Below, in pieces: positions 3,701 through 62,774 of a DNA stretch of 64,000 nucleotides. Positions within the stretch are counted from its first letter, which is position 1, and each line of letters begins with the position of its first letter. This DNA is from a virus (taxonomy: Duplodnaviria > Caudoviricetes). The notes under the pieces are model-generated. The model did not search any database, had not been told where the DNA came from, and was given only the letters and a program-made list of their open reading frames with translations. The stretch covers positions 25,012 to 89,011 of IMG/VR virus record IMGVR_UViG_3300000942_000002, one strand, 5' to 3'. Position numbers and translations under genes: made by a program.

Positions 3701-6569
3701 AGCTTACTATGATGAATATGACAAAGGACTTAGGGAAACAACTCTGGATTCATGGGTAAGTTATGAATATCAAGGCTTACCCTGTACAGGATATGGTAGG
3801 ACAAATTGTGATACACCTGAAGACGATGAAATAGAATGGATAGCAGATTGTGTTACTGACATGTGGTTTGAGTCTCAAGTTAATATTTCTTTACGTTATG
3901 GAATGACTACAGGAGTTCCTACATTCTTAGATGCTCCAGGCCGAGTAGAGACTGGTAATGATTTTATTGAAGGAGCCTATGAACATTTTGATATTTATAA
4001 ACAACGTGATGTATCTATTTATCCTTTTACAAAATTAGATCGTCATGTAATGGAGAAACTTTTAGCTTTTAACCCAGAAAGAGAAGATAGCCGTGAATAT
4101 ATAGGTCATCCTCTAGGTGAATGGTATGAAGTGAATCCAGATTATAGCAGAATAAATAGTCAAAAAACTTTCTTTCATTTACCTATTGAGTATGATTGCT
4201 GTTCAAATTGTCAAGAAGATTTCCCTCATAGGGTTCATTATTCAGAGCAATCTTTCCAAGAAGAGCTTACAGATAACTTCAGAGTTTTTCTTCCTAACAA
4301 TTACACAGATATTGAAGGAGAAACTGGAAGAATTACAGATATTTTTAGAATAAAAAATAATATCTATATTCACACTGAAGAAGGTCTTTGGCATCAGCCA
4401 CAAAACTACCAAGAAAGGGTAACAGGAGATATTGTTTCTTTTATTGGAACTGGAGGATATTTTACTGTACCTCCAAGAAAAATACTAGATGACAACAAGG
4501 CTTCTGGAGGAACTAAACATAGAGAGGCTACCATAAAAACTAAGCATGGGGTTTTCTATGTATCTGAAAATGAAAATAAAATATATCGTTTTGATGGTAA
4601 TCAATTAGAAGCTATTAGTGATATTGGTATGACTAATTGGTTTAAAGAAAACACTAGATTACAATTGTTAGAAGATTACTATAATGCAAATGGAGGACAT
4701 TACCCTTACGATAATAATCCTTCTAATCCTTATGGAGTTGGATTTATATCTACTTACGATACTAAGAAAGAAAGATTAATATTTACTAAGAAAGATTCCA
4801 TATTAGCAAGTGATATAACAGATAGCAATGATTTTGAAATATGCAGCCAAAATGGCGACCTAATTATTTTTGAAGGTTTTCAACAAACTATCGATACTTA
4901 TGCTGCTAGTGGTTGGAGATATGTGGGAATTGAGGAATGTAGGATGAAGTTTGAAAAAACTGGTTTCAACACAGAAGTCCAGATTGGAGAAGTTACTACA
5001 ACTATTGTGATTCCTCCAGACACTATTGTAATTCCTTTCTTTGATACCACTTCTATGACAGGTAGTACAATTGACAATATTTCTGCGACAATTGACGCTT
5101 GGTTCCCAGGTTTTAAAGCTTCAGTTAATGGTGGAGTAAATAATTTGACTCTTTTAAATCCTGGCACTTGGAATAGATGGGGAACAGAAAACTGGGTGCA
5201 AGATGTCCCTCAGTTAGCTTTAAATGCTGTTGGTCCAGGGAAAGATGTTTTGCTTTTAACTTTTGTGGATGAAGTAAACAATGGTTTTCATGGAGGAAGT
5301 ATCACATCTCCTATGAGTAGCCCTTCTCCAACTTATATGGCAAGTGTAAATAATTTTATTTCAAACATTCATCCTCAGTACGGTAATTTTATTGCAATAA
5401 ATTACCCTATAGTTAGAGTTTCAAATGAATGTAAAGAATATTTACAACATGCCATAGCTGCTATTGAAGGGGAAAACATGACTGTTGCTCAAGTTGATGC
5501 TTTATCTCAAAATGGTAATTTTTCAAATGCGGAGTGGGATATAGTTAAAGCAAACTTACAATCAAATCCTTATTCTGCTTTACCAGCACTTAAAGACTAT
5601 GGTTGGTTATACAAAGAAAATAGAGTGGATGGTGTTGATAATAATGGCACTGTTGAATGCCCTGTAGATGGTGTGTCTGTATTAACTCCCTGCCAATTTA
5701 CAAAAGATATAGAGGAGGTTTTAGTTACTCAAACTACTACAACTGTTACTCCTACTCCTGTAGAAGTTAGAGTACCATATATTCAGAATACCTATGTAGA
5801 TGGGGAAGTAGTAGAGAATTTTGCTGACGGAGATAATTCATGGACAATGAGTTATTCTTTAAAAGCAAAGAGTTGGACTTCATGGCATTCATATTTACCA
5901 AATTTCTTTTACAATATTGCTGAGAAATTCTATTCTTGGGCATTTGGTAAAAAAGATGGTAATACAAATACTTTTTGGAGACATAATAGAAAAGGATATT
6001 ATCAAAATTTCTATGGAGAGAGACATCCTTTTTCTGTGGAATATACAGCGATGTCAGAACCTCTAAAAACAAAAATATGGGATGACATAACCTTACACAC
6101 TGAGGCAAAGAGGTATAATCCAGAAATGAAGCAATACGTTGATGTGAGAGATGTAACTTTTAATAAAGGAATCTTTTATAATACTCGTCAATGTTCTGGT
6201 CTATTAAACTTAAAACCTAAGAATACTGATACACCTGATGAAGACTATATGATGCAACAAATTGTAAATGTAGATCCAGGAACAATTATAATTGATAGAA
6301 ACGAAAGAGATTGGTCTATTAATGATATTAGAGATATAAGAGTTGATTATGATCAACCTATATTTAATGCTGATATTCTTGCAAGACAATCTGAATATTA
6401 TACAGATAAAATCTTAAATGATTCATCTTTAGATGAAAATAAAGACTGGGATCAGTTGGAGAGTTTAAGGGATAAATATTTGGTAGTTAGGTTAATATTT
6501 GATACTTTTGACGATGTTAAGTTGATAATGAACTATTCTATTGAAAATGAAACAGATTCCTTTAGATAA
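756..6569 (+). CDS. Muzzle / tail stabilisation protein (P22 gp10-like, crAss-like) with inserted domains
   Basis: 1937 aa. The N-terminus (KGTYQYALNAVNE...SNEESNEPC) and C-terminus (WTMSYSLKAKSWTSWHSYLP...LRDKYLVVRL) resemble crAss-like stabilisation proteins. It lies between the ring and cargo genes. Confidence 0.75.
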   Translation: MKKNVTQTKKGLHTDNSHIDIPKGTYQYALNAVNETEVGDLFFVSNEESNEPCGPLPDGYVPLGKVYIGNNQTLIFSVKDDETSSEIGIRDEECNYTTQVNGDLGFKLNHQIRATYRLRRGCETTVYWVDGINNKPMYYVVEKPEQFQDAGGNWDKNKFELQRSYSRVPIFQDIELQNSGGQLEPGSYNIGIQYLDENLNPTEWIVTSEIVNVYNDDTSEAFLDIRGSINIETGADNEDYRNFSTTDKSLRVELSNLDETFLFYRLAFIEATSGNGLVNNIYYTENLPIENNIFIYTGVNFATEGTEEEIKAFNNIIESASSIEQADNMLLLGDVQGKQINFCKLQQYASRIKADMTTRKVLNNQLIDKANTKSPTARFEGIGYMPGEIYSFGIVYVFADGTQSPVYHIPGKSHNIIDTGGNDVSEDFVFKPGTGGQKVYPMSIDNESVNSRYNDNSTCENEDYWGVDSMGDSLRFQKVRHHRFPLRSKINLDLVTLENTVGGTSEYFQIRLNIQGNLLTPCTQADIDDGDCGAIVETPPYQVRVTYEVDGVQDTMTVNVNPSDYASAHPSVAVDFVELSNFIVSPNITILSIEEAQNDNSIFNVGVDSGNGSGQHGALTYTATIQPAEFTAETRIYSSEIYGIQFSGIELPPLSETGGEQIVGYYIVRNERTETEKTILDSAVLVPSVTNDKYVSHGLLYPEFAQGRRISDRVYGMIHPEFKFNNKKYPEFTEMIQEGQFDVIDRKKSKSRYRDVQDGTSYDPSVHKSGGGTDRDGWSLKAITRDNITEYSRVTNGFNFIQDDIEDTFYLDALQSRNVEEDTLTIYNIAGDNKTGIIHLKEDNDVAIDNKLPYVYLKRPIADSYSTFRSLPYYKTSINMHNFFLENGNPDPNSDTAVEFNGDTYITPMRYLNTMWWDNRIAQRAGRTSVWNYIIGGILLIVGAVLLIFGGSGALVIGAGIAIIGGGALFISSGVKRDALVRAYYDEYDKGLRETTLDSWVSYEYQGLPCTGYGRTNCDTPEDDEIEWIADCVTDMWFESQVNISLRYGMTTGVPTFLDAPGRVETGNDFIEGAYEHFDIYKQRDVSIYPFTKLDRHVMEKLLAFNPEREDSREYIGHPLGEWYEVNPDYSRINSQKTFFHLPIEYDCCSNCQEDFPHRVHYSEQSFQEELTDNFRVFLPNNYTDIEGETGRITDIFRIKNNIYIHTEEGLWHQPQNYQERVTGDIVSFIGTGGYFTVPPRKILDDNKASGGTKHREATIKTKHGVFYVSENENKIYRFDGNQLEAISDIGMTNWFKENTRLQLLEDYYNANGGHYPYDNNPSNPYGVGFISTYDTKKERLIFTKKDSILASDITDSNDFEICSQNGDLIIFEGFQQTIDTYAASGWRYVGIEECRMKFEKTGFNTEVQIGEVTTTIVIPPDTIVIPFFDTTSMTGSTIDNISATIDAWFPGFKASVNGGVNNLTLLNPGTWNRWGTENWVQDVPQLALNAVGPGKDVLLLTFVDEVNNGFHGGSITSPMSSPSPTYMASVNNFISNIHPQYGNFIAINYPIVRVSNECKEYLQHAIAAIEGENMTVAQVDALSQNGNFSNAEWDIVKANLQSNPYSALPALKDYGWLYKENRVDGVDNNGTVECPVDGVSVLTPCQFTKDIEEVLVTQTTTTVTPTPVEVRVPYIQNTYVDGEVVENFADGDNSWTMSYSLKAKSWTSWHSYLPNFFYNIAEKFYSWAFGKKDGNTNTFWRHNRKGYYQNFYGERHPFSVEYTAMSEPLKTKIWDDITLHTEAKRYNPEMKQYVDVRDVTFNKGIFYNTRQCSGLLNLKPKNTDTPDEDYMMQQIVNVDPGTIIIDRNERDWSINDIRDIRVDYDQPIFNADILARQSEYYTDKILNDSSLDENKDWDQLESLRDKYLVVRLIFDTFDDVKLIMNYSIENETDSFR

Positions 6570-13800: not shown

Positions 13801-16800
13801 GAAATTGGACAAAATGTAGATCAAGTAACTGAGCTTGCAGAGCAACAGGAAATAAGCTTTCAAGCCCCTGATAATAAGAAAGGTGTGGATGATTTAGATT
13901 ATGCTGGTCCAGCTTTTGATCCAGATGTAGAAACAGATTCTTTTGAAGATATAGATGATGCTTTCTTTGATGATATGCCGGTACAGAAAGATGGTTCTTT
14001 TGAAAATCAAGCTTTTAACAATTTAGTAGAGACAGTAAAAAATAGAGTAAATCTAATTGAAAAAAGAGATAAGACTAAGCCCTCTTTCAAAGATTATGTA
14101 GAGGATCTTATTGACAATGGGGATGTTCCTATTGAAAATTTCAGAGGTCATATGAGAGCTTTAGCCTTGGCTTGGAGTGGGGCCAAACTAGGTAAGACTA
14201 ATTGGAGACAATTATATAATGAATTATTTGAAGACACTCAAGCTGTACTTAATAGAAAAGAAAATCAGAATACTTCTGAAGCTATAAAAACTCCTCAAAT
14301 CGAAGAGGTACAAGAAAGAAGTGAAGAACAAGTAACTAATAAGAATAGTTTAAGTGAGCCTATAAAATATGAAGAAACAAGTGGAGCACCAGTTCATGTG
14401 ACTCCAAATTCTAATAAAACTTATGGTACAGAACATAAGCTTAACTTTTCTGCTATAGAATATAATGAAGTAATTGAAAATGTAAATGGAAAGAAAGTTT
14501 TTCGTAAAATAAATAGTCCTATACCTAAACTAAATGAAAATAGTGGTGTATCGTTTAAAGATTTGGTAAATCCAAATAAGAATAATATTGGAGATAAGCT
14601 TTTTCCTGAAGTTTTAGATGGAGAAGATTTAGCTAACACTTCTGTAGCTGTCAGAGATAAATATGGAAGACAAACTGGGACTATTACTTTTGCAGAATGG
14701 GTAGAAGGAGCTAGACCAGAGGGGATGTCTTTTGAAGCTTTTCAACAAACAAGAGAATACAAAGATAAAGTTCCTATGGTCTACAGGGACTCTCAAGGTA
14801 CTGCTGTAGCATATGTACCCGAGGTAGAATGGTTTAGTGTTACTTCTGTAGGTGATAGCACAAAAGATGTGGATGAAGTAGATCTTGATAACCCAAGTGA
14901 AAGTCTTAGAAAAGATATTCAACAGAATAGAGAACAAGCTTCTAACTTGAGAGAGGAAGTTATAAATGGTACTATTGAAGAGGTAGAGATTATTGATAAT
15001 CTTTCTTTTCCTCCTTTACAAAAAATTGCAAAATCTGATGATAACGGAGTTCCTATACCTACAAAATCTTTAAGTGAAGTTGCTCCAGATAGTCAGATAG
15101 TTTGGATGAAAGCTTCTGGTACCATTGTAGATATGAATGGTAGAACTATAGAGATGGAAAATATTTTAAACTTGGGGGATGAATCTGAAGGGTTCTTGAT
15201 GACTAAAGTTATAGAAGAAGATGGCATAAAAAAGAAATTACCTATCAACAGAAACCGTACTCATTATTTAGTTCACACTGCCACTATTTCTGGGGTAAAA
15301 AAATATATAGCTCTTAATGTCCAAAGAAAAAATGAAAATGGATTAGATTCTGCTTATTCAGAAGATATTGAAACAGCTAGGTGGATTGCTGCTATTAACA
15401 ATGTCACCAAATTCCATGATACAAACTCAGGTAGTGAAATACTTACCAATAGTTCTCACCCTCTTCATATGTCTTTAGAACAAGCTGAGGACTTGAGAAG
15501 ACAAATAAAAGAAGTTACAGGGACAGATGTTAAATCTAAATACACTGATCTAATAGAAGCTCTTATAGCTTACCAAACACCAGACAAAGATGGCCAGGTT
15601 GGGCAGAAAATTACTTTTGGTAGTGAACTAAGTAAAATACTAAGAGCTTATAATAAAGATACAGGTAAGTTTAAAAATGCAGATATTAATTTTAGACAAA
15701 ACACTTCTTTAAGAATGTTGAATAAACCTATGATCAAGATAGCAAAAACTGAAAATGGTTTTGTTGTAGAAAAGATTGCAGATTCTTATGATCAACACTT
15801 AAAGAATAGATTGTCTACAAATGTGATGGGGTATAATGTTGGAACAAAAGAAAATCCAGTGTACACTATTGCAGTTCAGCAAAAAGTTAAAATTAGACCT
15901 CTTTCTACTAAAAAAGAAACTTTAGAAGAAAAAGTAGAAGAGAATAAACAGGATACACAAGTTCAAGAAAAAGTTGTTGAAGTAGAAACTATTGAAACTC
16001 CAGGAGAACTAACTGAAGATCAAAAGCAAAAGAGAAAGCAATTAGTTGAAGAAGCTACTGCTTTAGCAAAAGAATTGAATTTAGATATTAGAGGTATCAA
16101 GGAGATAGATGATCTTATTGCCTCAGAATTAACTACTACAGAAAATGTAGACAACTCTATTCTTATTACTGAAGGTCTTACTATTAAACAAGAAGAAGAT
16201 ATAATCAAATGGTTATTTAGTAAACTTGCAAATAAAGAAACTAATTTTCAAGAAGTTAAAGAAGATTTGAATAAAGAATTTTCAAGTAAAGCAGACAAAT
16301 TAGCAACATCTATTTCAAACCTTAATGAATTTAAAGATAATGAGGTTGTGGACAATTTGATTACTACTTTAGAATCTGCATTAAGTCAAATAGAAAATGC
16401 TTTGGAGAATTCTGATAGTCTTCTTGCTGAAGCTTCTATGAGAGCTGTTAATACTTCTTTTATTACTGATGAGTTTGAAGTAGACGAAATAAACGAAAAT
16501 ATAAAAGATTTTAGTAAAGCTAGTAATGAAAACAAACCTATTGATAAAGTAGGTACTGCTTTGAAAAGAATTTTTGCTCAAGTTACTGATGGTAGTACCG
16601 GATTTATGGGGTTAGATACTTATGCTTCTTTTAAACAGATGTATGATACAGTTTCTTTAGCTTTATCTAGTGATTCTAATCTTGAACCAAATTTTAATGA
16701 GATGATAGCTCTCTTAAGAAAAAGAGAAAATTCAACACCTTGGATGAAACCTTTAATTGAAAGATTAGAGCAAGCTGATGACCAAGTAAAAAATCAATTT

Positions 16801-19800
16801 GTATATAATACCTATAAACAAAAAGTTTATGCAAAATTTGCAACACTTACTTTTGATAATGATGGAGGAGTAAACAGTAACATTTATGATAGTAATTCTA
16901 ATGAAGCAAAAAGAGCTGTAGTAGATAGATGGAGAGAAAATTTTAAAAGAGCTCCTATCAATAAAGAAGGAAAAATTGATACAAAAGTTCTTAATAAAGT
17001 TGTTGAAGAATGGAACAGTTGGTTTGATTCTGGGACTTCAAATCAGAGTGATACTACTTATAAAAATTGGTTAAGTAACTTTGGAATAGAATTATCTGAC
17101 TCAACTTTCACAGCATTAAGAAATGGAGAACTTAATATTTCTGAAGGTGGGGGTAAATTGAAAAAAGCTAGATTCAAAGATCTATTTGAAGGATTAACTG
17201 GGAGTAGCTCAAAAAACAGAACAGGTCTACTGTTTACAAACCTTATGAAATATTCTTTGATGAACAAGGATAAACAAGAGGTAGAGTTCTATGACAATAT
17301 AAAAAATCATCCTTTTGAGGATATGAATACTATCTTAAGTCAGTTGGCTGAATTAGAAGTAAAATATAATCCTAGTTATGGTAGTACCTCTAGATATATT
17401 TCTGGAAAAAGTGTAACAGAGATTGAGTCTTTTAATTATTTCTATGAGCAGTTTAAAAAATTAAAAAGTTCCTCTTTAAGTGAGGATAAAGCTTATCTAA
17501 AAGATTTAGAAAACCTAAGTTTTAGCCAAGACTCTTTTCTTTTAAAAATGCTTAAAGAAGATGATGTGTTTGCAAATCAATTTGGGCATGGTCTAGTTGA
17601 TCTAATGTCTTTAAAAGAACTTTATAAAAAGTCTCCAATGTTTGCAGGCATTGATGAATTAAGTTCTATTGATTATATGTTTGCTCAGAGAGCTATGTTC
17701 CAAAATAGGAATCAAGGAGCTGAAAAAGAAGTAATTGGACTTCCTTTTGAAGTTAGAATGGCTCACATGAATACTTTAACTAATTCTGATAAAGGAAGAA
17801 TGATGTTGTTGAAAACTGCTGTATTTGATTTCTATAAACAATCAGAAGCAGCTTTCGAGATTAATGAAGAAGGAGATATAAAATTCAAAGAAGACCTAAA
17901 CAATTTACTTTATGATAATTTAGTGGTACCAGAATTGAGAAGAATGGTCAACTTTATCACAAATGTGAAAAACACAAACATAAAAGGATATGATAAAGGA
18001 GCAGTCCGTTTTAATCTTATCCCTGGTATTAATACTTTAACTGATAAGAAAGGAAGAAGTGTTTCAGAATTAATTTCAGTTATTGAAGGAAAGTCTCAAG
18101 AAGAGATAATGGAAAATGTGAAAGAAATATTTGGTGCAGATATTTCTACTTTTATACAAGATAATGTTATTAAAGAAGCTTTAGATAATGTTAAAGATCT
18201 AAATCAGTTTAATAGTAAAATAGATGGTTTCAATAATGCAGAATATTTAAAGCAAAGAAAAGGTACTGTTGACGAGAACATGAAGATTGCCGAGTTAGAT
18301 TTTATCTTAAATTCTATGTTGACAAATATGAATTACATGCAACTTATGACAGGGGATCCAGCTCTTTATTATAAATCTAAAGGAGATGTGAAATCTAAAG
18401 ACCTTAAAGCTCAAACTAAAATTTCCCAGCAACTAGCTATCAACTTAGGGAAGAGAATGGCTTCTATGATAGCCCCAGGGAGTGTGTTAGCTGATTCAAA
18501 TAATAATTCTTATCTACAAGTATTCCTTGAGGACGTTAATGGAGTAGCTGACAATATTTTAGATATTGTCGAATGGCATTATAGCAAGAAAGAATTAAAT
18601 GAAAAGCATGGTAATGGACTTACGTATAAAGAAATGTTTGAATCTTCTAAAAAAGGTAATAGAGAATTTATTGATTTATTATCTGAAAGATTTGAAAGAG
18701 TTGCGGAGTTTATAGACATTGAGAGCACTGATGCACAAGAGTACACAACTCTTAATGAGCATATATACGTTATGTTGAAACAAGGAAGAATTTCTGAAGA
18801 TAAATATAAAACTATCCAAGATAAAATAAAGAAAGAAGAGGATTTAACAAAAGAGGAGTTAGACTTAGTATTGCAGCCTATTAAACCTGTTTATACCGGA
18901 ACCATTTATGATTCTGAACAAGATGTTAATAGAATGATGTATATCAAGTCTTCTTCTTTCCCTCTTATACCTCAACTAACAAAAGGTAGAAAGTTGGATG
19001 ATCTTAGAAAAAATATGGAAGAAGTTGAAAAAGTATACAGCACCACTGTAAGAGCTTCCTATCAAACAGCAAATAAGGTTGGGGCTTTAACTTCTGAGAA
19101 TACTATAAAAGATTTTTCACAACCTATAGTAGACAATAATATCATAAAATTAGAAAGAGCTCATTTTAAAATACAACAGGATGTTCCTTTTAAATCAAAA
19201 AAGGTTCAAGATGACACTGTCTCTATGGGTACTCAAATATTTAAACTTTTGATGGGAGACGGTATAATGGATATTGATGGATTTGAATTTGAAGGCCAAG
19301 AATATAATGGTAAAGAATTACAAAACAAATTCCACGAAATATTTAAAGATATGGTTTCTCTTAAAAGAGACAAGTTTCTAGATTCTCTAGGGCTTAATGC
19401 TGATATGAGTGCAAAAGACCCAAAAGAAACTATTAAGAAGCTGCAAAAACTTCTTATTAAAGAAGCAAAAAGTAGAGGGTTCTCTAAACAAGATTTAAAA
19501 ATACTTTCTCTGGTAGATAATGGACAAGGAGAAATGACTTTTAAATTACCTCTTTGGTTAACAGGAAATAGTAACAAGTATGAATCTATGTTGAATGCTC
19601 TTATAAATAACAAAATATTTAAGCAGAAGCTGCCGGGGAATAAATTTGTTACAGGATCAGAAGCAGGGTTTGATGTATCAGAAACTACTGAAGGTATTGA
19701 TGAAAGCAGAATAATTCATGTGGGAGATTTTGAAGGGGGTGTACTACAAAGTACTAGAAAGCAGGATAAAAGCATATCAAAAGCTCAAATATTGGTTCCC

Positions 19801-36108: not shown

Positions 36109-37722
36109 TTATGTAAATTTAGTTGTTGTTGTGTCATCTTTATTGATGACTGCATAATTACTCGTTAGCAATGTACCTACTATAGATACAGCACTTTCTA
36201 ACCCAATTCTTACTACTTTAAAAGGATCAATAATATTACCTTCAAACATGTTTTCAACATATTCTCCTTTTTTAACATCATATCCTCTTTGTTCTTCAAA
36301 TCGAGCTAATTCATTTTCTATAACATCTGGGCTTTCTCCAGCATTTAAAAGAATTTGTCTGAAAGGAGCTTTTACAGACTCTAGTAAACTTTTGTATCCG
36401 GCTTGAACACTTTCCGTTACTACAGGTTTGAAAGCTTTTCTCTCTAAATGTTTACTTGCATAATAAAGAGCCATACCTCCTCCTTCAATCACTCCTTCTG
36501 CCAAAGCAGATCTTACTGCACATTTACAATCTTCTACTCTATCTAGTAATTCTTTACCTTCTTCTCTGGAAAGAGCACCCACTTTGATCATAGCAACACC
36601 ACTAGATAATTTACCAAGTCTCTCTTCTAAGATATCTACTTCGTATTTATTCCCTTTGTAATGTTCTAATTGAGATTGAATAAATCTCATTCTCTCATTG
36701 ATTATCTCCTGATCTCCAGCTCCTCCAATAAAAGCAGTATCTAAATTGGTAATTTCTGCTCTTTGAGCTTCTCCAAGATCATCAGGGTTGAATTGTTCTG
36801 GATCAGAATTTTCATCAAATACTTCTCCTCCAAACAATGCTGCCATATCTTTCAATCTAGCAGACCTTTTCTTACCATACCCCGGAGACTGCACAATAGC
36901 AGATCTTACATTACCTTGGGCATGATTTATAACAAGCCCTCTAAGAGCACTTTCTTGAACATTTTCTGCGACAACTATTAATGGCCTTCCTTTTTGTCCT
37001 GCATATTCTACAGCTTGGAATATTTGTTTGAACTCAGAGATCTTACCATCATAAAGAAAAATGAAAGGATTCTCAAGATCTGCTTTCATTTTTATTTTAT
37101 CTGTCACACAGTAAGGAGAAATGTATCCTCTGTCAAACTGCATACCTTTTACCATATTTACTGTGGTTTCCATGCTATCTCCCTGTACTACAGAGATTAC
37201 AGCATTTATACCAAGCTCTTTGTAAATATTGGTTACAGTTTCAGCAATTTCTTCATCTCCATTTGAAGACACTAAAGCAACTGCTTTCAATTCTGGACTA
37301 TCTGGGCTAACATCACGTTTCTTACCTTCAAGATATTTAAGAATATCAATGCTGGCGATCTTAACTCCTTTTTTGAATTCTAAAGCTTTTCTTCCTAGAT
37401 CTAGGTGTTTGATCCCATCATTATAGATGGCTTGAGATAGTACAGTAGCAGTGGTGGTTCCATCTCCAGCTAAATTGTTAGCCCTCATAGATATGTTTTT
37501 GACCAGCTCTGCACCTAAATATTCAATTGAGTTTGAATCAAAATGAATGTCTTCGGCTACACTAACACCATCTTTAGTGATATTGATTTCTCCAAAAGGG
37601 TTTTTAATAACAACTGTATTACCCATTGGCCCCAAAGTGTCCTTTACAGCATCAGCTAACTCGTTAATTCCTCTTTGAATTCCATCTCTGAATTCTCTTC
37701 CTTTTACTAATTTTTCAGTCAT
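36109..37722 (-). CDS. groEL: Group I chaperonin GroEL
   Basis: Motifs TLGPMG, ITKDGVSVA, AGDGTTTAT, GMQFDRGYISPY and RVED. No GGM tail. Confidence 0.97.
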   Translation of the reverse strand: MTEKLVKGREFRDGIQRGINELADAVKDTLGPMGNTVVIKNPFGEINITKDGVSVAEDIHFDSNSIEYLGAELVKNISMRANNLAGDGTTTATVLSQAIYNDGIKHLDLGRKALEFKKGVKIASIDILKYLEGKKRDVSPDSPELKAVALVSSNGDEEIAETVTNIYKELGINAVISVVQGDSMETTVNMVKGMQFDRGYISPYCVTDKIKMKADLENPFIFLYDGKISEFKQIFQAVEYAGQKGRPLIVVAENVQESALRGLVINHAQGNVRSAIVQSPGYGKKRSARLKDMAALFGGEVFDENSDPEQFNPDDLGEAQRAEITNLDTAFIGGAGDQEIINERMRFIQSQLEHYKGNKYEVDILEERLGKLSSGVAMIKVGALSREEGKELLDRVEDCKCAVRSALAEGVIEGGGMALYYASKHLERKAFKPVVTESVQAGYKSLLESVKAPFRQILLNAGESPDVIENELARFEEQRGYDVKKGEYVENMFEGNIIDPFKVVRIGLESAVSIVGTLLTSNYAVINKDDTTTTKFT

Positions 37723-42064: not shown

Positions 42065-43231
42065 TTACATTTGCTTAATTCTTAAGCTTTCTTTTATGTC
42101 CTCTAATCTTGCTACAATATTGTTTCTATTGATTTCCGGGATTACAGGTATATTTAGACTATAATCAGATAAATCTTCAGTATTCATCTCTCCTACATAG
42201 GAAATCATGTCCATAAAATTATCTTCAAATCCATCTTCAATATCTTCATCCAAAATGTTACCATTTTCATCAAAAGCTACAACTGCCACAGGGTAATAAG
42301 CACAAGTTCTCATTTTACCATAACTATCTTGAGGTGGTACTGCCACCACATCAGCAGGATTAACAAGAACTCTCAAACCAGTGTCTCCAAAATAGTTGCT
42401 TTGTAACCAAGATTTCCCGGCAACATGTAATCCTCTACTACAAGTGTTTTCTTGTTTAGAATCACATTTACTTCTATCCATAGTAACTGGCTCTCCAATA
42501 CGAATAGTAAATTTTCTTGTGTAATCATCAGTATAAACTGGAGCCACATCTTCGTCAGAAAGCTTATCATATAATTCAGCTAGATTACCTTTTACTTTCA
42601 ATAGTTTATTCTGGGAAGTGGTATAAATTCTTTCCCCATCTTTATCTTTACCAATAAAATACTTTTTTGGAGATTTTTTCTGTTTGAATTTAATTTTTGT
42701 AAAAGAGTCTGTAATAAATTTTGCCCATTTAGAACTAATCTCAGATCCTTGTTTTTTAAGAACTACATTTCTATAAGCAACGAATAACCCAGATTTAGAA
42801 ATAGTCATTCCATACCTATTTAAGAACCAAAATAAATTAGTTCTAGCTCTACTATCTGGATTTAGAGAAGCTAAAGTCCAAAAATTTAGGTAAGTAGACA
42901 ATAGTTCAATATTATCAGTTTTTTCTGCATTCCATATAGCTACAGCTAAATCTTCTGGTAGACTTAATTCTGAAATAGACCTGATAAACACACTAGTCCC
43001 AGATACAGTTAAGTATTCTGACTGGCTGAAATTCTCAAGAAGATCTAATTTATTTTCAATTTCTTCTTTAGTTTCTGTATACTTTGGCATAAGTATTTCT
43101 CTAACTAAATGTGGATTGTCTTGATTACTTAAGACATCTTCATACATTTCTTCAGTACAAGAGCTATTTGTTAGCATAGTACCGTCATTTAAAATAACAC
43201 TGATGTTATTCTTAATTCTCATTATTTTCAT
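42065..43231 (-). CDS. rIIB: rIIB-like protein
   Basis: NP....R..LF.FL, LFVAYRNV, TCSRGLHV and VNPADVVAVP..GKMRTCAY; follows rIIA. Confidence 0.85.
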   Translation of the reverse strand: MKIMRIKNNISVILNDGTMLTNSSCTEEMYEDVLSNQDNPHLVREILMPKYTETKEEIENKLDLLENFSQSEYLTVSGTSVFIRSISELSLPEDLAVAIWNAEKTDNIELLSTYLNFWTLASLNPDSRARTNLFWFLNRYGMTISKSGLFVAYRNVVLKKQGSEISSKWAKFITDSFTKIKFKQKKSPKKYFIGKDKDGERIYTTSQNKLLKVKGNLAELYDKLSDEDVAPVYTDDYTRKFTIRIGEPVTMDRSKCDSKQENTCSRGLHVAGKSWLQSNYFGDTGLRVLVNPADVVAVPPQDSYGKMRTCAYYPVAVVAFDENGNILDEDIEDGFEDNFMDMISYVGEMNTEDLSDYSLNIPVIPEINRNNIVARLEDIKESLRIKQM

Positions 43232-45569
43232 CTTCTTCAGACTTTAAGTTAAATATTGTTTCTTTCTTTAATTTTAAAACTGCTTTTACATTTGGTCTTA
43301 TCAATTTTCTAGCCAGTAGATAATCAACTATTAAATTTACCCTATTCTCCGGAATATGTAAAGTAGAAGAGAATCTACTTTCAGTCTGTGTAAAATCAAT
43401 AAGTACTTGAGCATTTAATAACTCTTTCTTATGCTTATTAAAAGTTGCTCTAATAGATTCGTTAAAATAATCTTTTTCTTCACAGATCTCGTATATCTCT
43501 TTTACTAACTTTTCTTCTTCATCGGATAGACGAGAAGAGTTTGCTCCATAAGTATAGACAAATTCTGCCAATTCTTTCACAGCATTTTCTAATTTTTCAG
43601 ATATTTTACCTAAATTTTTGATCTTTGAAAGGTCTTTTAAAATAGGTAATTCTCTGTTGAGGTACTCTACTGTAGCTATATTTCTTAGTAAAGTGAATTT
43701 AGTGTCCATAAAATCTTCAATTTTAACAAAATTTTCAACATCTTTTAGTAATTTTAGTTTAGTGGGGGCTAATTCTACCATTGAAGGTCTAGCTCCGGGT
43801 TTAAGGTATCCAAAAAGAGTTCTTAATTTTTCACAATTCTTTTCTCCGTAAATAGTAAGAGAACTGAATTGTTTTTTAAGATCTTTCATTACATGAGGAG
43901 TTGAGTCAGTCATAACTCCACCTCCATAATCCTTAAATCTCAACTCATGTAGATTGATATTCTGTTTCCAATCGAAACCCACTCTTTTTGTCGTAGCTCT
44001 TTTTGCTTTATCAGCAGCTTTTGTGTCATCAATCCATTTCTGAGGTACTTTTGAATCATTAAAAGTTTGTAGTTTTCCAATATTTCCTAAAACATAGTTT
44101 ACTATAACTTTAAATATCCTGTTATCATAAAAAATCTTTGTTCTATTAAAACCTTGAGAGATTCTCCTATCATTTTCTTTAACAACATCTTTAAGCCTTT
44201 CCATATACTTTTTAACATAGTATTTTATAGGCCTATCGTTTTTGATAAAGTAAGATGGATCTTCAAAAGTTTCTCGAATATATCTCTTAGTAATATTCTT
44301 AACTTCTCCTAGATCAGCTAAATGAGTAGAAGAAAATTTAGATTTTATGTTTTCCAAAGACCTTGTTTCTGAAACATATTTTATCTGACCATTTCTAAAC
44401 ACATACTGAGCTGTAATTCCATGATAACTCATGAAAACATCATATAGTTGCTTAAAAGATCTGGCATCATAAGATTCTCCATTAAGAGTTAGATTTCTTT
44501 TTGAATCTGAGAGTTTGAGAGCAACTCTAACGTCATCTTTCTCCAAAAGAATAAGATACTGCTTATCTTCAATTGCTTGAAGGTAGTCTTGTATCTTTGT
44601 AAAATCTTTTGTTTTTTCCCTCATTATAAGCTTCTCAATTTCTTCAAGAGCTAAATCTAATTTATCCTCTATCGTCTGCTTATTTTTTGGAGAATATAAT
44701 ATCTCCTCTCTATTTGGAGTTACTTCAAGATCCCCAATATCAAATTTTAGAGATATAGGATAATCAGATATTTTTGCAGCATACTGTTTATCCAAATTTT
44801 CTATCCTTACAGGGTATCTTACTTTTCCGAGAACTAGATTAATTTTTTTGGTCCCATCTAAAGTGTTGACCCAAAAATTATCATACTTCTTTATCGAAAA
44901 AGTGTTATACTGTTCCTGAATATTTGTTCTATTTGTAATAACTCCATCTTCTCTTGTTGAATCTATGATATATAGATTCTCGAAGTATACTAATTGAGAT
45001 TTAATTGCATTTGCAAAATTTTGAAAATCTCCTTGCTTTATCTCTACTTTTACTTCGAGCCCATTTCTTTCTTCTGTCTCTTGACTGTGTAAAAGATCAA
45101 TAGAAATACTATTCCCATCTTTATACATCATATAAAGATACTTCATACCTTCATAGTTAGAGGTAATATGCACTACATCTGAGTAAGCTAAAGCTGAAAA
45201 TCTTCCTATACCAAATCCTCCAATTTGATTATTATTTGTTCTTTTTGTAGAACTTCCAATATTTTTATAAATCTGATCAAACCTTTCTGGACTCAATCCA
45301 ACCCCAAAATCTTGTACTCTACAAAATTCTCTCCCTTCAGTGTCTTTTAACAATTCTAAGATAACAGGTTCATCTACCCCGGCCTCAGTGTGAGAATCCC
45401 AGGCATTACTTACTGTTTCTCTAATAAAAGATTCTATAGGTTTTGAGTATAAATTTGTTGATAATATGGTAACAATGAAATCGATATTATTTGTATCAAT
45501 TGATACATTGTTATTTTTAATATCACCTACTGCTACTGCTTCTTTTTCTTGTTCTGTATTAAAAATCAT
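43212..45569 (-). CDS. rIIA: rIIA-like protein with an HSP90/GHKL ATPase N-terminus
   Basis: LYSKPIESFIRETVSNAWDSH, QDFGVGLS and GGFGIG. Confidence 0.85.
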   Translation of the reverse strand: MIFNTEQEKEAVAVGDIKNNNVSIDTNNIDFIVTILSTNLYSKPIESFIRETVSNAWDSHTEAGVDEPVILELLKDTEGREFCRVQDFGVGLSPERFDQIYKNIGSSTKRTNNNQIGGFGIGRFSALAYSDVVHITSNYEGMKYLYMMYKDGNSISIDLLHSQETEERNGLEVKVEIKQGDFQNFANAIKSQLVYFENLYIIDSTREDGVITNRTNIQEQYNTFSIKKYDNFWVNTLDGTKKINLVLGKVRYPVRIENLDKQYAAKISDYPISLKFDIGDLEVTPNREEILYSPKNKQTIEDKLDLALEEIEKLIMREKTKDFTKIQDYLQAIEDKQYLILLEKDDVRVALKLSDSKRNLTLNGESYDARSFKQLYDVFMSYHGITAQYVFRNGQIKYVSETRSLENIKSKFSSTHLADLGEVKNITKRYIRETFEDPSYFIKNDRPIKYYVKKYMERLKDVVKENDRRISQGFNRTKIFYDNRIFKVIVNYVLGNIGKLQTFNDSKVPQKWIDDTKAADKAKRATTKRVGFDWKQNINLHELRFKDYGGGVMTDSTPHVMKDLKKQFSSLTIYGEKNCEKLRTLFGYLKPGARPSMVELAPTKLKLLKDVENFVKIEDFMDTKFTLLRNIATVEYLNRELPILKDLSKIKNLGKISEKLENAVKELAEFVYTYGANSSRLSDEEEKLVKEIYEICEEKDYFNESIRATFNKHKKELLNAQVLIDFTQTESRFSSTLHIPENRVNLIVDYLLARKLIRPNVKAVLKLKKETIFNLKSEEDENNEN

Positions 45570-59328: not shown

Positions 59329-59378
59329 ATATGCCTTTCTTTTTTGTTCTTGCGATTCCTACATATTTTTTAAGTTTG

Positions 59379-59754
59379 TGGAGCTGCTGGGAGTCGAACC
59401 CAGGTGCCTCCTATTGCAGATACAATGTTTTATACAGTTTAATGTGTAGTTTGAATTCCTCACAAGGAATAGGGCCAACTTGTTAAGTTGACATTCCACC
59501 ATCTAGTTAGTTATGGTCTAGCAACCGGGTTTACCTAAAATTTTATAGCTTAGGCAGCTACAGCCAATTCCATCTTAGGAGCTACTAAATCTTCACTCCC
59601 TCCATTTAGAATATTGTGAACAACATTCATATTAGCTTTAATCTGTGTATTATCTTTATTGTTTCCAATTATTGATATCACCTAAGTTTTTAGCACTTAT
59701 CTCTGTGCACTGAACATTATAAAATTCATACAAGGTCAAAGCCAGAACAGCCCC
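59379..59754 (-). ncRNA. ssrA: tmRNA (one-piece), 376 nt
   Basis: 5' GGGGCTG pairs with 3' CAGCTCC-A, giving the G3.U70 alanine identity. D-loop analogue GGCTTTGAC, T-arm CTGGG-TTCGACT-CCCAG, and a tag frame 59666-59550 ending ...LAVAA*. CCA is not encoded (ACAA). Confidence 0.93.
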
Positions 59755-59759
59755 ATAAA

Positions 59760-59859
59760 ATAAGAGCACAGTTTTTAAAGTCAATATCATTCTCATCTCA
59801 TAAGATTGATTACTAAATTCCTTATAATCCAGTAGTTATCATTGACACTGCACTCTTAT
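59760..59859 (-). ncRNA. Candidate structured RNA immediately upstream of tmRNA
   Basis: A 13-bp closing stem with two G.U pairs that form only on the - strand, an inner GTCAAT/ATTGAC stem, and two internal hairpins. Confidence 0.4.
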
Positions 59860-59923
59860 AATATCCACCCTACTTTACATCTAAGTGGCTAAACACATTC
59901 TCCAATGTATTTCAGGTGGTGCA

Positions 59924-59956
59924 CAAACATACTAGTTTTCATTGTTCCCAATCCAA
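59924..59956 (-). promoter_or_regulatory. Bacteroidota housekeeping-sigma promoter candidate
   Basis: TATGTTTG (TAnnTTTG -7 element) at 59931-59924, with TTG 17 and 22 nt upstream, in the intergenic gap before the ncRNA/tmRNA. Confidence 0.5.
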
Positions 59957-59958
59957 CT

Positions 59959-62163: not shown

Positions 62164-62352
62164 TCACTTTTTTCTTAAAGGATTAAAATCCCTCCATAAT
62201 TGTATTGCTACAATAGTATTATAAACCGGAGTAAATATCTGGGTGTTATCCACCCAAGACATTACTTCAGTTTCACTAACTATTTTGTCCCAAATAGCAA
62301 CAGCTATCGCAGACATAACATATACAAATACTAATATTCCAATTGTTATCAT
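62164..62352 (-). CDS. Small membrane protein
   Basis: N-terminal TM helix. Confidence 0.55.
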   Translation of the reverse strand: MITIGILVFVYVMSAIAVAIWDKIVSETEVMSWVDNTQIFTPVYNTIVAIQLWRDFNPLRKK

Positions 62353-62774
62353 TTTCTGAATCTTTTTAAGTAGTTGTAAGCTTTATTATACTTCTTAATT
62401 CTTTCAAAGTCTTTTTCTCTTACATCTTTAAGTCGAGTGATTTTAGAATTATGTTCTAAATCTCTAAGTTTAACTTGAGTGGCATACTCATTTGTAGCTA
62501 TTAATTCAATGTTTCCTTCATAAGATCCAGCTCTCATATCAAGAAGAGTTAAAGCTAAAAGAATATTCTCATGAAATCCTTCTTCTCTTAATTTCTCAAT
62601 TGTCCAGTCAGTATCTTCTACTAAATCATGAAGAACTCCAACAATCATATACTCTTCTCCAAGATGTCTAACTTTATTCATAACCCAAAGAGGGTGTAAA
62701 ATATAAGGTTTCCCTTGCTTATCTGTTTGATTTACATGGGCCTCACTTGCTATTTGTATTGCTCTTGCTAACAT
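62349..62774 (-). CDS. Stand-alone HD-domain hydrolase of RelA/SpoT type (small alarmone hydrolase/Mesh1-like)
   Basis: AH..Q.DK.GKPYI.HP..V, LHDLVEDT (HDxxED) and VKL.D..HN. Confidence 0.85.
   Translation of the reverse strand: MLARAIQIASEAHVNQTDKQGKPYILHPLWVMNKVRHLGEEYMIVGVLHDLVEDTDWTIEKLREEGFHENILLALTLLDMRAGSYEGNIELIATNEYATQVKLRDLEHNSKITRLKDVREKDFERIKKYNKAYNYLKRFRK

Follow-up and report, generated by a model that had tools for sequence, protein, structure and literature searches.

A phage tmRNA gene with a phage-specific, conserved and extra-long tag in the genome of a crAss-like virus

Described tags and the locus in its phage

The ssrA tag of Escherichia coli is a two-part signal, consisting of an N-terminal part that is bound by SspB and an LAA end that is bound by ClpX. 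Tag lengths from 8 to 35 residues were given in a 2014 review (PMC3968760), which also describes the G3:U70 pair as the alanine identity rule, and places the setting of the reading frame in the five nucleotides upstream of the resume codon. In Mycoplasma, the tmRNA encodes a 27-residue tag that was tied to the Lon protease by in vitro work (Gur & Sauer 2008; Ge & Karzai 2009), as relayed in PMC8403727. In phages, ssrA was reported by Hudson, Lau and Williams (2014; PMC4131195) only for mycobacteriophages (Bxz1, Cali, Catera and others) and Bacillus phage G, and a tmRNA of the Cellulophaga phage Calle has been mentioned in passing (PMC8776804). Later papers have counted phage tmRNAs by ARAGORN without looking at the tags.

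The gene described here is located in the IMG/VR virus record IMGVR_UViG_3300000942_000002, which is 89,011 bp long and is estimated to be about 92% complete. The window, i.e., the whole stretch of DNA that was analysed, consists of 64,000 nucleotides and corresponds to bases 25012-89011 of that record. Like the catalogued phage tmRNA genes, this one is found in a lytic phage without smpB; unlike the published reports, which are gene lists, the present analysis describes a phage-specific conserved tag. With 38 residues in the window and 41-44 in relatives, such tags exceed the reviewed range of 8-35 (PMC3968760). Searches of full texts for long tags in phages, or for peptide strings from the core and tag of the family described below, returned no match, many subscription journals being outside their coverage. 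Overall, the tmRNA itself belongs to a known class, and what is new here is a phage tmRNA with a phage-specific, conserved and extra-long tag.

The genes of the window are densely packed and use the standard code; they include those for a DNA polymerase of the PolA type, helicases (Dda-like and others), a ligase, homologues of rIIA and rIIB, and GroEL. A previous, sequence-only reading of the same DNA had called it a phage, which agrees with its origin in an IMG/VR virus record and with the presence of phage replication genes, rIIA/B and a giant, virion-RNAP-like open reading frame (ORF) of 4237 residues. Part of this ORF had its top similarity in phages of Flavobacterium psychrophilum (38.6%, with 98% of the query covered), and the same part also resembled Bacteroides crAss-like phages; the window was therefore assigned to a crAss-like phage. 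The DNA polymerase was uninformative for taxonomy, the PolA type being common to many unrelated phages, and the virion-RNAP-like region was informative instead. Judging from these relatives, the host of the phage is probably a member of Flavobacteriia, likely of the family Flavobacteriaceae.

Several other genes of this crAss-like phage were recorded in passing. The rIIA-like (785 aa) and rIIB-like (388 aa) genes adjoin each other at window positions 42065-45569 on the minus strand. A full-length GroEL-type chaperonin is encoded at 36109-37722, also on the minus strand (PHROG 5725, E 2e-137), and is relevant background for a phage that may also tamper with protein quality control. About 2.6 kb from the tmRNA gene, at 62349-62774 (minus strand), lies the gene of a small HD-domain protein, the Pfam HD_4 score of which (28.2 bits) was barely above the cut-off.

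Anatomy of the tmRNA gene and its reading frame

The sequence-only reading had proposed a tmRNA at this locus, and both tools applied to it agree: the Rfam model RF00023 matched at 59376-59754 and ARAGORN placed the gene at 59378-59754, in both cases on the minus strand. The Rfam match scored 66.3 bits, against a cut-off of 47, with an E-value of 1.2e-23, and it covered the full model (model positions 1-374). It was the one gene that ARAGORN found in the window, and it is the sole tRNA-type gene of the whole 89-kb record. The features of the gene are listed in Table 1.

Table 1. Features of the tmRNA gene in the window (window coordinates)
Feature	Position	Strand	Basis
tmRNA (ssrA) gene, 379 nt	59376..59754	-	Rfam RF00023 and ARAGORN
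Acceptor stem, 5' strand GGGGCUG, including G3 of the alanine identity pair G3:U70	59748..59754	-	Sequence reading
Pseudoknot 1-equivalent region, located between helix 2 and resume codon	59678..59715	-	Rfam alignment and alignment A2
Frame-setting context UAAUU, five nt (U at -5, A at -4)	59667..59671	-	Alignment A2
Putative resume codon GGA (Gly)	59664..59666	-	Rfam alignment and alignment to host GGC
Probable tag reading frame, 38 codons (39 residues including the tmRNA-borne Ala)	59553..59666	-	Open frame and homologous frames
Conserved tag core, residues 8-21, predicted amphipathic helix	59604..59645	-	Protein alignment A1, codon-position differences, AlphaFold2
Variable linker, residues 22-33	59568..59603	-	Length and sequence differ among relatives
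C-terminal ssrA-like end LAVAA	59553..59567	-	Family comparison
Tag stop codon TAA	59550..59552	-	Sequence
T-arm CUGGG-UUCGACU-CCCAG	59387..59403	-	Sequence and Rfam alignment, maximum posterior probability
Acceptor stem, 3' strand CAGCUCC, discriminator A, then CAA	59376..59386	-	Sequence

The acceptor stem in the tRNA-like part of the window tmRNA is of the alanine type, having the G3:U70 pair and A as the discriminator. It is formed by GGGGCUG at 59748-59754 and CAGCUCC at 59380-59386; its positions 4-7 show co-variation among the relatives, and the G3:U70 pair is kept in 8 of 8 phage relatives and in the four hosts compared (4/4). There is also a tRNA-like T-arm, in the stem of which compensatory changes were seen across relatives. 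CCA is encoded neither in the phage tmRNA gene nor in the genes of the host family, and is presumably added post-transcriptionally. In its G3:U70 pair, its T-arm, its 5' UUUGAC motif and the lack of an encoded CCA, the gene is like the chromosomal tmRNA genes of Flavobacteriaceae.

The region equivalent to pseudoknot 1 aligns with that of the relatives, with some compensatory changes seen by eye, and the domain downstream of the tag aligns poorly to the Rfam model. The window tmRNA has 174 nt after the stop codon versus approximately 273 in the hosts, i.e., it is about 100 nt shorter in this part, and its downstream pseudoknot domain is therefore reduced. Its Rfam score of 66 bits, within the 35-72 bits of the phage tmRNAs, likewise differs from the 111-170 bits of the host tmRNAs. 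A minimum-free-energy fold of the single sequence missed even the T-arm and was not used for the anatomy.

A score so low relative to the hosts could point to a decaying, functionless fragment of a host tmRNA that was acquired by the phage. However, several observations argue against decay: compensatory changes are seen in both the acceptor stem and the T stem, the tag is constrained, as described below, this gene is the only one of tRNA type retained in the genome, and it persists across distant lineages, namely Crassvirales phage phi14:2, Fipvunavirus and many uncultured contigs. We consider decay to be extremely unlikely; as far as its sequence tells, the gene is a structurally intact, one-piece tmRNA gene.

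Between the stop of the upstream ORF and the 5' end of the tmRNA, there is a non-coding leader of 204 nt (59755-59958, minus strand). It holds a Bacteroidota-type -7 motif, TATGTTTG, at 59931-59924; the tmRNA would therefore be cut from a longer precursor.

The internal frame of the tmRNA opens at a Gly codon after a conserved context and ends in LAVAA and TAA. On the minus strand, AATAATT is followed by GGA at 59666-59664, then by 37 more sense codons, and then by TAA at 59552-59550. Translation of 59553-59666 is identical to the 38-residue peptide of the sequence-only reading, and the C-terminal AA that had been pointed out there is kept, as part of LAVAA before the TAA. The other two frames of this stretch have 5 and 6 stops. 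From composition alone, the probability of a 38-codon open frame arising here by chance is about 0.03-0.06, and therefore the single sequence is only suggestive and the comparative evidence decides.

Two alignments bear on where this frame starts. The consensus resume position of the Rfam model falls on the GGA at 59666 with maximal posterior probability. In alignment A2, which consists of the 5' parts of 9 phage and 4 host tmRNAs, the phage GGA shares a column with the host resume codon GGC, such that the GGA proposed in the sequence-only reading is homologous to the codon used by the hosts; the T at -5 (column T84) and the A at -4 (column A85) are invariant. The resume codon is at gene position 89 in the window tmRNA versus 94-99 in the hosts. 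The description of AATAATT as a Bacteroidota-type context stood only in part: one host (L132) indeed has UAAUU, but most hosts examined have UAAAC or UACAC before GGC.

ARAGORN assigned a different tag to the window tmRNA, namely its last 10 residues only, starting from an internal GCU at gene position 173. Taken at face value, translation would resume downstream at this GCU, the real tag would be about 10 residues long, and the 84 nt upstream would be an untranslated spacer. The local context, UAGUA/GCU, does resemble the resume context UAGUC/GCA of E. coli. Against this, the starts called by ARAGORN in the relatives are at non-homologous sites, being located within the core, before the core, or 7 residues from the end. 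The start was wrong in most long-tag phage tmRNAs (the window, L005, L198, L202 and L206), and also in two ordinary host tmRNAs (L152 and L154), in which direct reading shows normal tags. In addition, the region upstream of the GCU has third-position-biased substitution and only in-frame indels, and the GGA, besides being homologous to the host resume codon, is at the canonical distance from the 5' end. Resumption at the internal GCU is thus very improbable, and the 10-residue tag of ARAGORN is a miscall, an artefact of its heuristic; in view of these errors in tag start, phage tags copied from ARAGORN or Pharokka output are unreliable. From homology and the substitution patterns, we infer that GGA is the resume codon, and the 38-residue frame is quite probably the real tag.

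The tag family in phages and the tags of the host family

The relatives of the tag were collected with a pattern that demanded GGAAAC followed, after 9-39 nt, by codons for Q-x-[KE]-A-N-M. An earlier and stricter viral pattern search had matched Cellulophaga phage phi14:2 only, and a helicase-based search for the locus gave four loci only. The tmRNA of phi14:2, a member of Crassvirales, was found by DNA search, and GenBank annotates small hypothetical ORFs over this copy; that of Flavobacterium phage FpV4 was found by genome scan, in an unannotated gap. IMG/VR contigs, 64-102 kb in size, contained further members, as did marine and other metagenomes, the metagenome members being on unclassified contigs. 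The matches of the metagenome scan were mostly to an unrelated protein family that shares the string LEANMT, and these were excluded; metagenome matches were kept only if they had a tag-like end or a tmRNA 5' end upstream.

The resulting family consists of 17 distinct tag sequences (the window and 16 others), each of 34-44 codons and all open frames, from phi14:2, the Flavobacterium Fpv phages, IMG/VR contigs and metagenome contigs. The family tag has a Gly-Asn start resembling that of the hosts, about 14 residues of conserved core, and a variable linker with an ssrA-like end. Across the family, conservation of the core is strong, though it stops short of strict invariance. The core of the window tag, at residues 8-21, fits the family motif Q-x-[KE]-A-N-M-x-[VIM]-V-[HRFN]-N-I-L-N, and in protein alignment A1 the window tag is 43-68% identical to 9 other members. 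All 17 tags end in a hydrophobic residue followed by Ala or Val and a final Ala, with TAA as the stop codon in 13 and TAG in 4. It is to be noted that the invariance of G1, N2, Q, A, N and M is in part a consequence of the search pattern, which demanded these residues.

The coding signature was read in the seven codons past the pattern-fixed part, which are unconstrained by the pattern and encode VVHNILN in 9 of the 14 non-Fpv sequences. Over all 17 sequences, the differences at codon positions 1, 2 and 3 numbered 92, 48 and 302, respectively (33, 14 and 101 in the first ten sequences alone). There were synonymous switches of Leu (CTA/CTT/TTA), His (CAC/CAT) and Val (GTT/GTA), and pN/pS was 0.40. 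The spacer between GGAAAC and the Q codon has six different lengths (9, 12, 15, 24, 27 and 36 nt), all of which are multiples of three and free of stops, while the alternative frames contain 2-9 stops in every member. Judged by these substitutions, the tag core evolves as protein-coding sequence and is under purifying selection. The third-position bias and the in-frame spacers in 17 homologous tags also lend comparative weight to the 38-residue tag that had been read from the window by itself.

Conservation of the core could also have another cause, such as a small protein started at an internal AUG (residue 13), or RNA structure in the mRNA-like domain. All members have this AUG, although the search pattern demanded it, and Shine-Dalgarno sites are not needed in Bacteroidota. 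A downstream start, however, needs neither the open frame that extends from the resume codon to the AUG nor the six in-frame spacer lengths. The third-position variation (92/48/302) speaks against conservation at the RNA level, and the frame ends in a canonical ssrA-type C-terminus. Both are very improbable in our estimate.

In another alternative, the RNA would act mainly as a decoy that titrates host SmpB or EF-Tu and thereby dampens host trans-translation, the tag being irrelevant. For mycobacteriophage DS6A, a proposal of such a role for its TLD-only RNA is described by Hudson et al. (2014; PMC4131195), and the 3' domain of the phage tmRNA is reduced, as described above. Nonetheless, a decoy would not keep a frame of 34-44 codons under purifying selection with a conserved degron-like end, and there is little chance that the RNA acts in this way.

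In one relative, L200 (IMGVR_UViG_3300020045_007777, 4494-5655), some 727 nt of inserted sequence split the long-tag tmRNA gene in the T-loop. At the start of this insert is a group I intron (Rfam RF00028, 94.2 bits), and an ORF of 139 codons is located within it on the opposite strand; the remainder of the T-loop and the acceptor strand make up the 3' exon, at about 5636-5655. Should this copy be functional, splicing of its RNA would be required. For tmRNA, a T-loop with a group I intron has a precedent in Clostridium botulinum.

For comparison with probable hosts, genomes of Flavobacteriaceae were reached via a match to the 16S probe CF319a, and the family was then sampled. The first five genomes all had tmRNAs (5/5), which scored 132-155 bits, and the length of the host tmRNA was 392-414 nt in 145 of 151 sampled genomes. 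All of the 35 Flavobacteriaceae tmRNAs read encode 9-residue tags of the GENNYALAA type, ending in ALAA. The sequence-only reading had named a host clade with the same long tag as the result that would speak against it, and the 9 residues found in 35 of 35 hosts show the opposite. The core motif was found in the tmRNA of none of 401 Flavobacteriaceae genomes (0/401). The sole match of the motif in these genomes was out of frame, falling within an ORF of 362 residues that has no tmRNA in its vicinity. The long-tag family is carried by phages and is absent from the tmRNAs of the 401 host-family genomes; so far, judging by the sequences collected, it has been seen only in phage and metagenome DNA.

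The phage and Flavobacteriaceae tmRNAs are alike in having a Gly resume codon in the same column, U at -5 and A at -4, and a tag that starts with Gly followed by Asn or Glu and ends in Ala-Ala. They are unlike in tag length (38 versus 9 residues), in the predicted helical core, which is not in the host-family genomes searched, in the shortened part past the stop with its lower Rfam score, and in the lack of smpB in the phage.

Long tags are not confined to this family. A tag-blind viral search constrained only the 5' tRNA-like part and AATTGG, and its matches were verified by Rfam or ARAGORN. When the frames were read from the homologous Gly, the verified viral tmRNAs had tags of 9, 10, 14, 17, 26, 32, 33, 34, 35 and 36 residues. 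The tags of two helicase-linked relatives of the window have 33 residues, and six IMG/VR contigs (L178, L183, L193, L181, L194 and L008) encode tags of 32-36 residues without the ANM core, in some of which a pattern of loose similarity, A-[DE]-x-[VL]-x-A-x-V, is present. Such tags may represent either additional long-tag families or relatives that have diverged strongly. Several long tags lack the ANM core, and it seems that either the tag was extended repeatedly or the core has diverged beyond recognition. Neither Rfam nor ARAGORN confirmed an 8-residue candidate (L188), which was excluded. A related 94-kb contig, L010 (IMGVR_UViG_3300040801_001133), has ten tRNAs beside a tmRNA with a 33-residue tag, and it also has group I introns at 16007-16244 (113 bits) and 18110-18342 (71 bits), downstream of the helicase region.

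The predicted helix and a possible role of the long tag

The structure of the tag was modelled by AlphaFold2 from a 10-row family alignment, which gave a helix at residues 4-22 with pLDDT of 67-77; the mean pLDDT was 61, i.e., of low confidence. No secondary structure was modelled past residue 22, the block-mean pLDDT being 53 for residues 21-30 and 45 for residues 31-38, with values below 50 only from residue 28. In the core sequence, Ile, Met, Val and Leu are placed at i, i+4, i+7 and i+11, and its hydrophobic moment is 0.4-0.5 (0.47). The amphipathic-looking stretch that had been noticed in the inserted part of the tag thus corresponds to a moderately amphipathic predicted helix, by both AlphaFold2 and hydrophobic moment. 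On this model, the tag begins in a host-like manner, continues with the conserved amphipathic helix and a linker that is variable and flexible, and finishes in an ssrA-like end.

This layout can be likened to the two-part tag of E. coli, in which an upstream adaptor element, a spacer and a C-terminal degron follow one another, although the likeness serves as a working analogy only. The upstream element of E. coli is a short extended peptide, whereas that of the phage is a predicted helix of about 14-19 residues, and SspB was found neither in the phage record nor in a Bacteroides control genome. By analogy, the workings of a long tag have their best precedent in that of Mycoplasma, which is also unusually long and in which the extra length carries recognition for a protease other than ClpXP (PMC8403727). 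The two also differ. The Mycoplasma tmRNA is cellular and belongs to a lineage without ClpXP, whereas the likely hosts here have ClpX, detected in 5 of 5 host-family genomes, as well as a short tag of their own; the phage-borne tags have no sequence similarity to the 27-residue tag and are longer (34-44 residues).

Besides SspB, neither SmpB nor ClpP was found in the phage record, and host factors must therefore serve the phage tmRNA. In the mechanism that we propose, the phage tmRNA would be charged by the host AlaRS and delivered to stalled ribosomes by host SmpB and EF-Tu. Translation of the tag would add Ala and 38 residues to the nascent chain, and by its C-terminal end the tagged chain would still be recognised by ClpXP-type proteases of the host. 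By analogy with the tags above, the conserved helix may act as a second recognition element, at which an adaptor, Lon or FtsH, or a phage factor could dock. The phage would in this way add rescue capacity during infection and control the fate of the rescued products. Such extra capacity might be wanted when host or defence nucleases make non-stop messages, although this is speculation. From sequence comparison, the locus quite probably encodes a working, one-piece phage tmRNA with a 38-codon tag that is run with host factors.

A partner of the helix was sought among the neighbouring genes. All-against-all BLAST of the flanking ORFs of 14 loci revealed no conserved partner gene next to the tmRNA; only replication genes were common, and these in subsets of the loci. 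The role of the helix is therefore speculative, and its partner, if any, would be elsewhere in the phage or encoded by the host. We tentatively suggest that the helix may be a phage-specified address label, by which the phage, through its own tmRNA, would rewrite what host trans-translation yields, sending all chains that are rescued in infected cells to a fate unlike that of host-tagged chains. If so, the chains could be passed to another protease or to a binding partner from the phage or the host, or they could be sequestered or protected.

These results touch on the question of why some phages carry tmRNA genes. A group of Flavobacteriia phages keeps a tmRNA with a tag about four times as long as that of the host, the core of which is under purifying selection; this argues that the peptide itself, and not only the release of the ribosome, matters to the phage. 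Two members of the family are in cultured phages with tractable hosts, namely phi14:2 (Cellulophaga baltica) and FpV4 (Flavobacterium psychrophilum). The phages of the family probably alter the fate of proteins from rescued ribosomes. The address-label role, if true, would be a new layer of the phage takeover of host protein quality control, one that would recur in several phage lineages with unrelated long tags.
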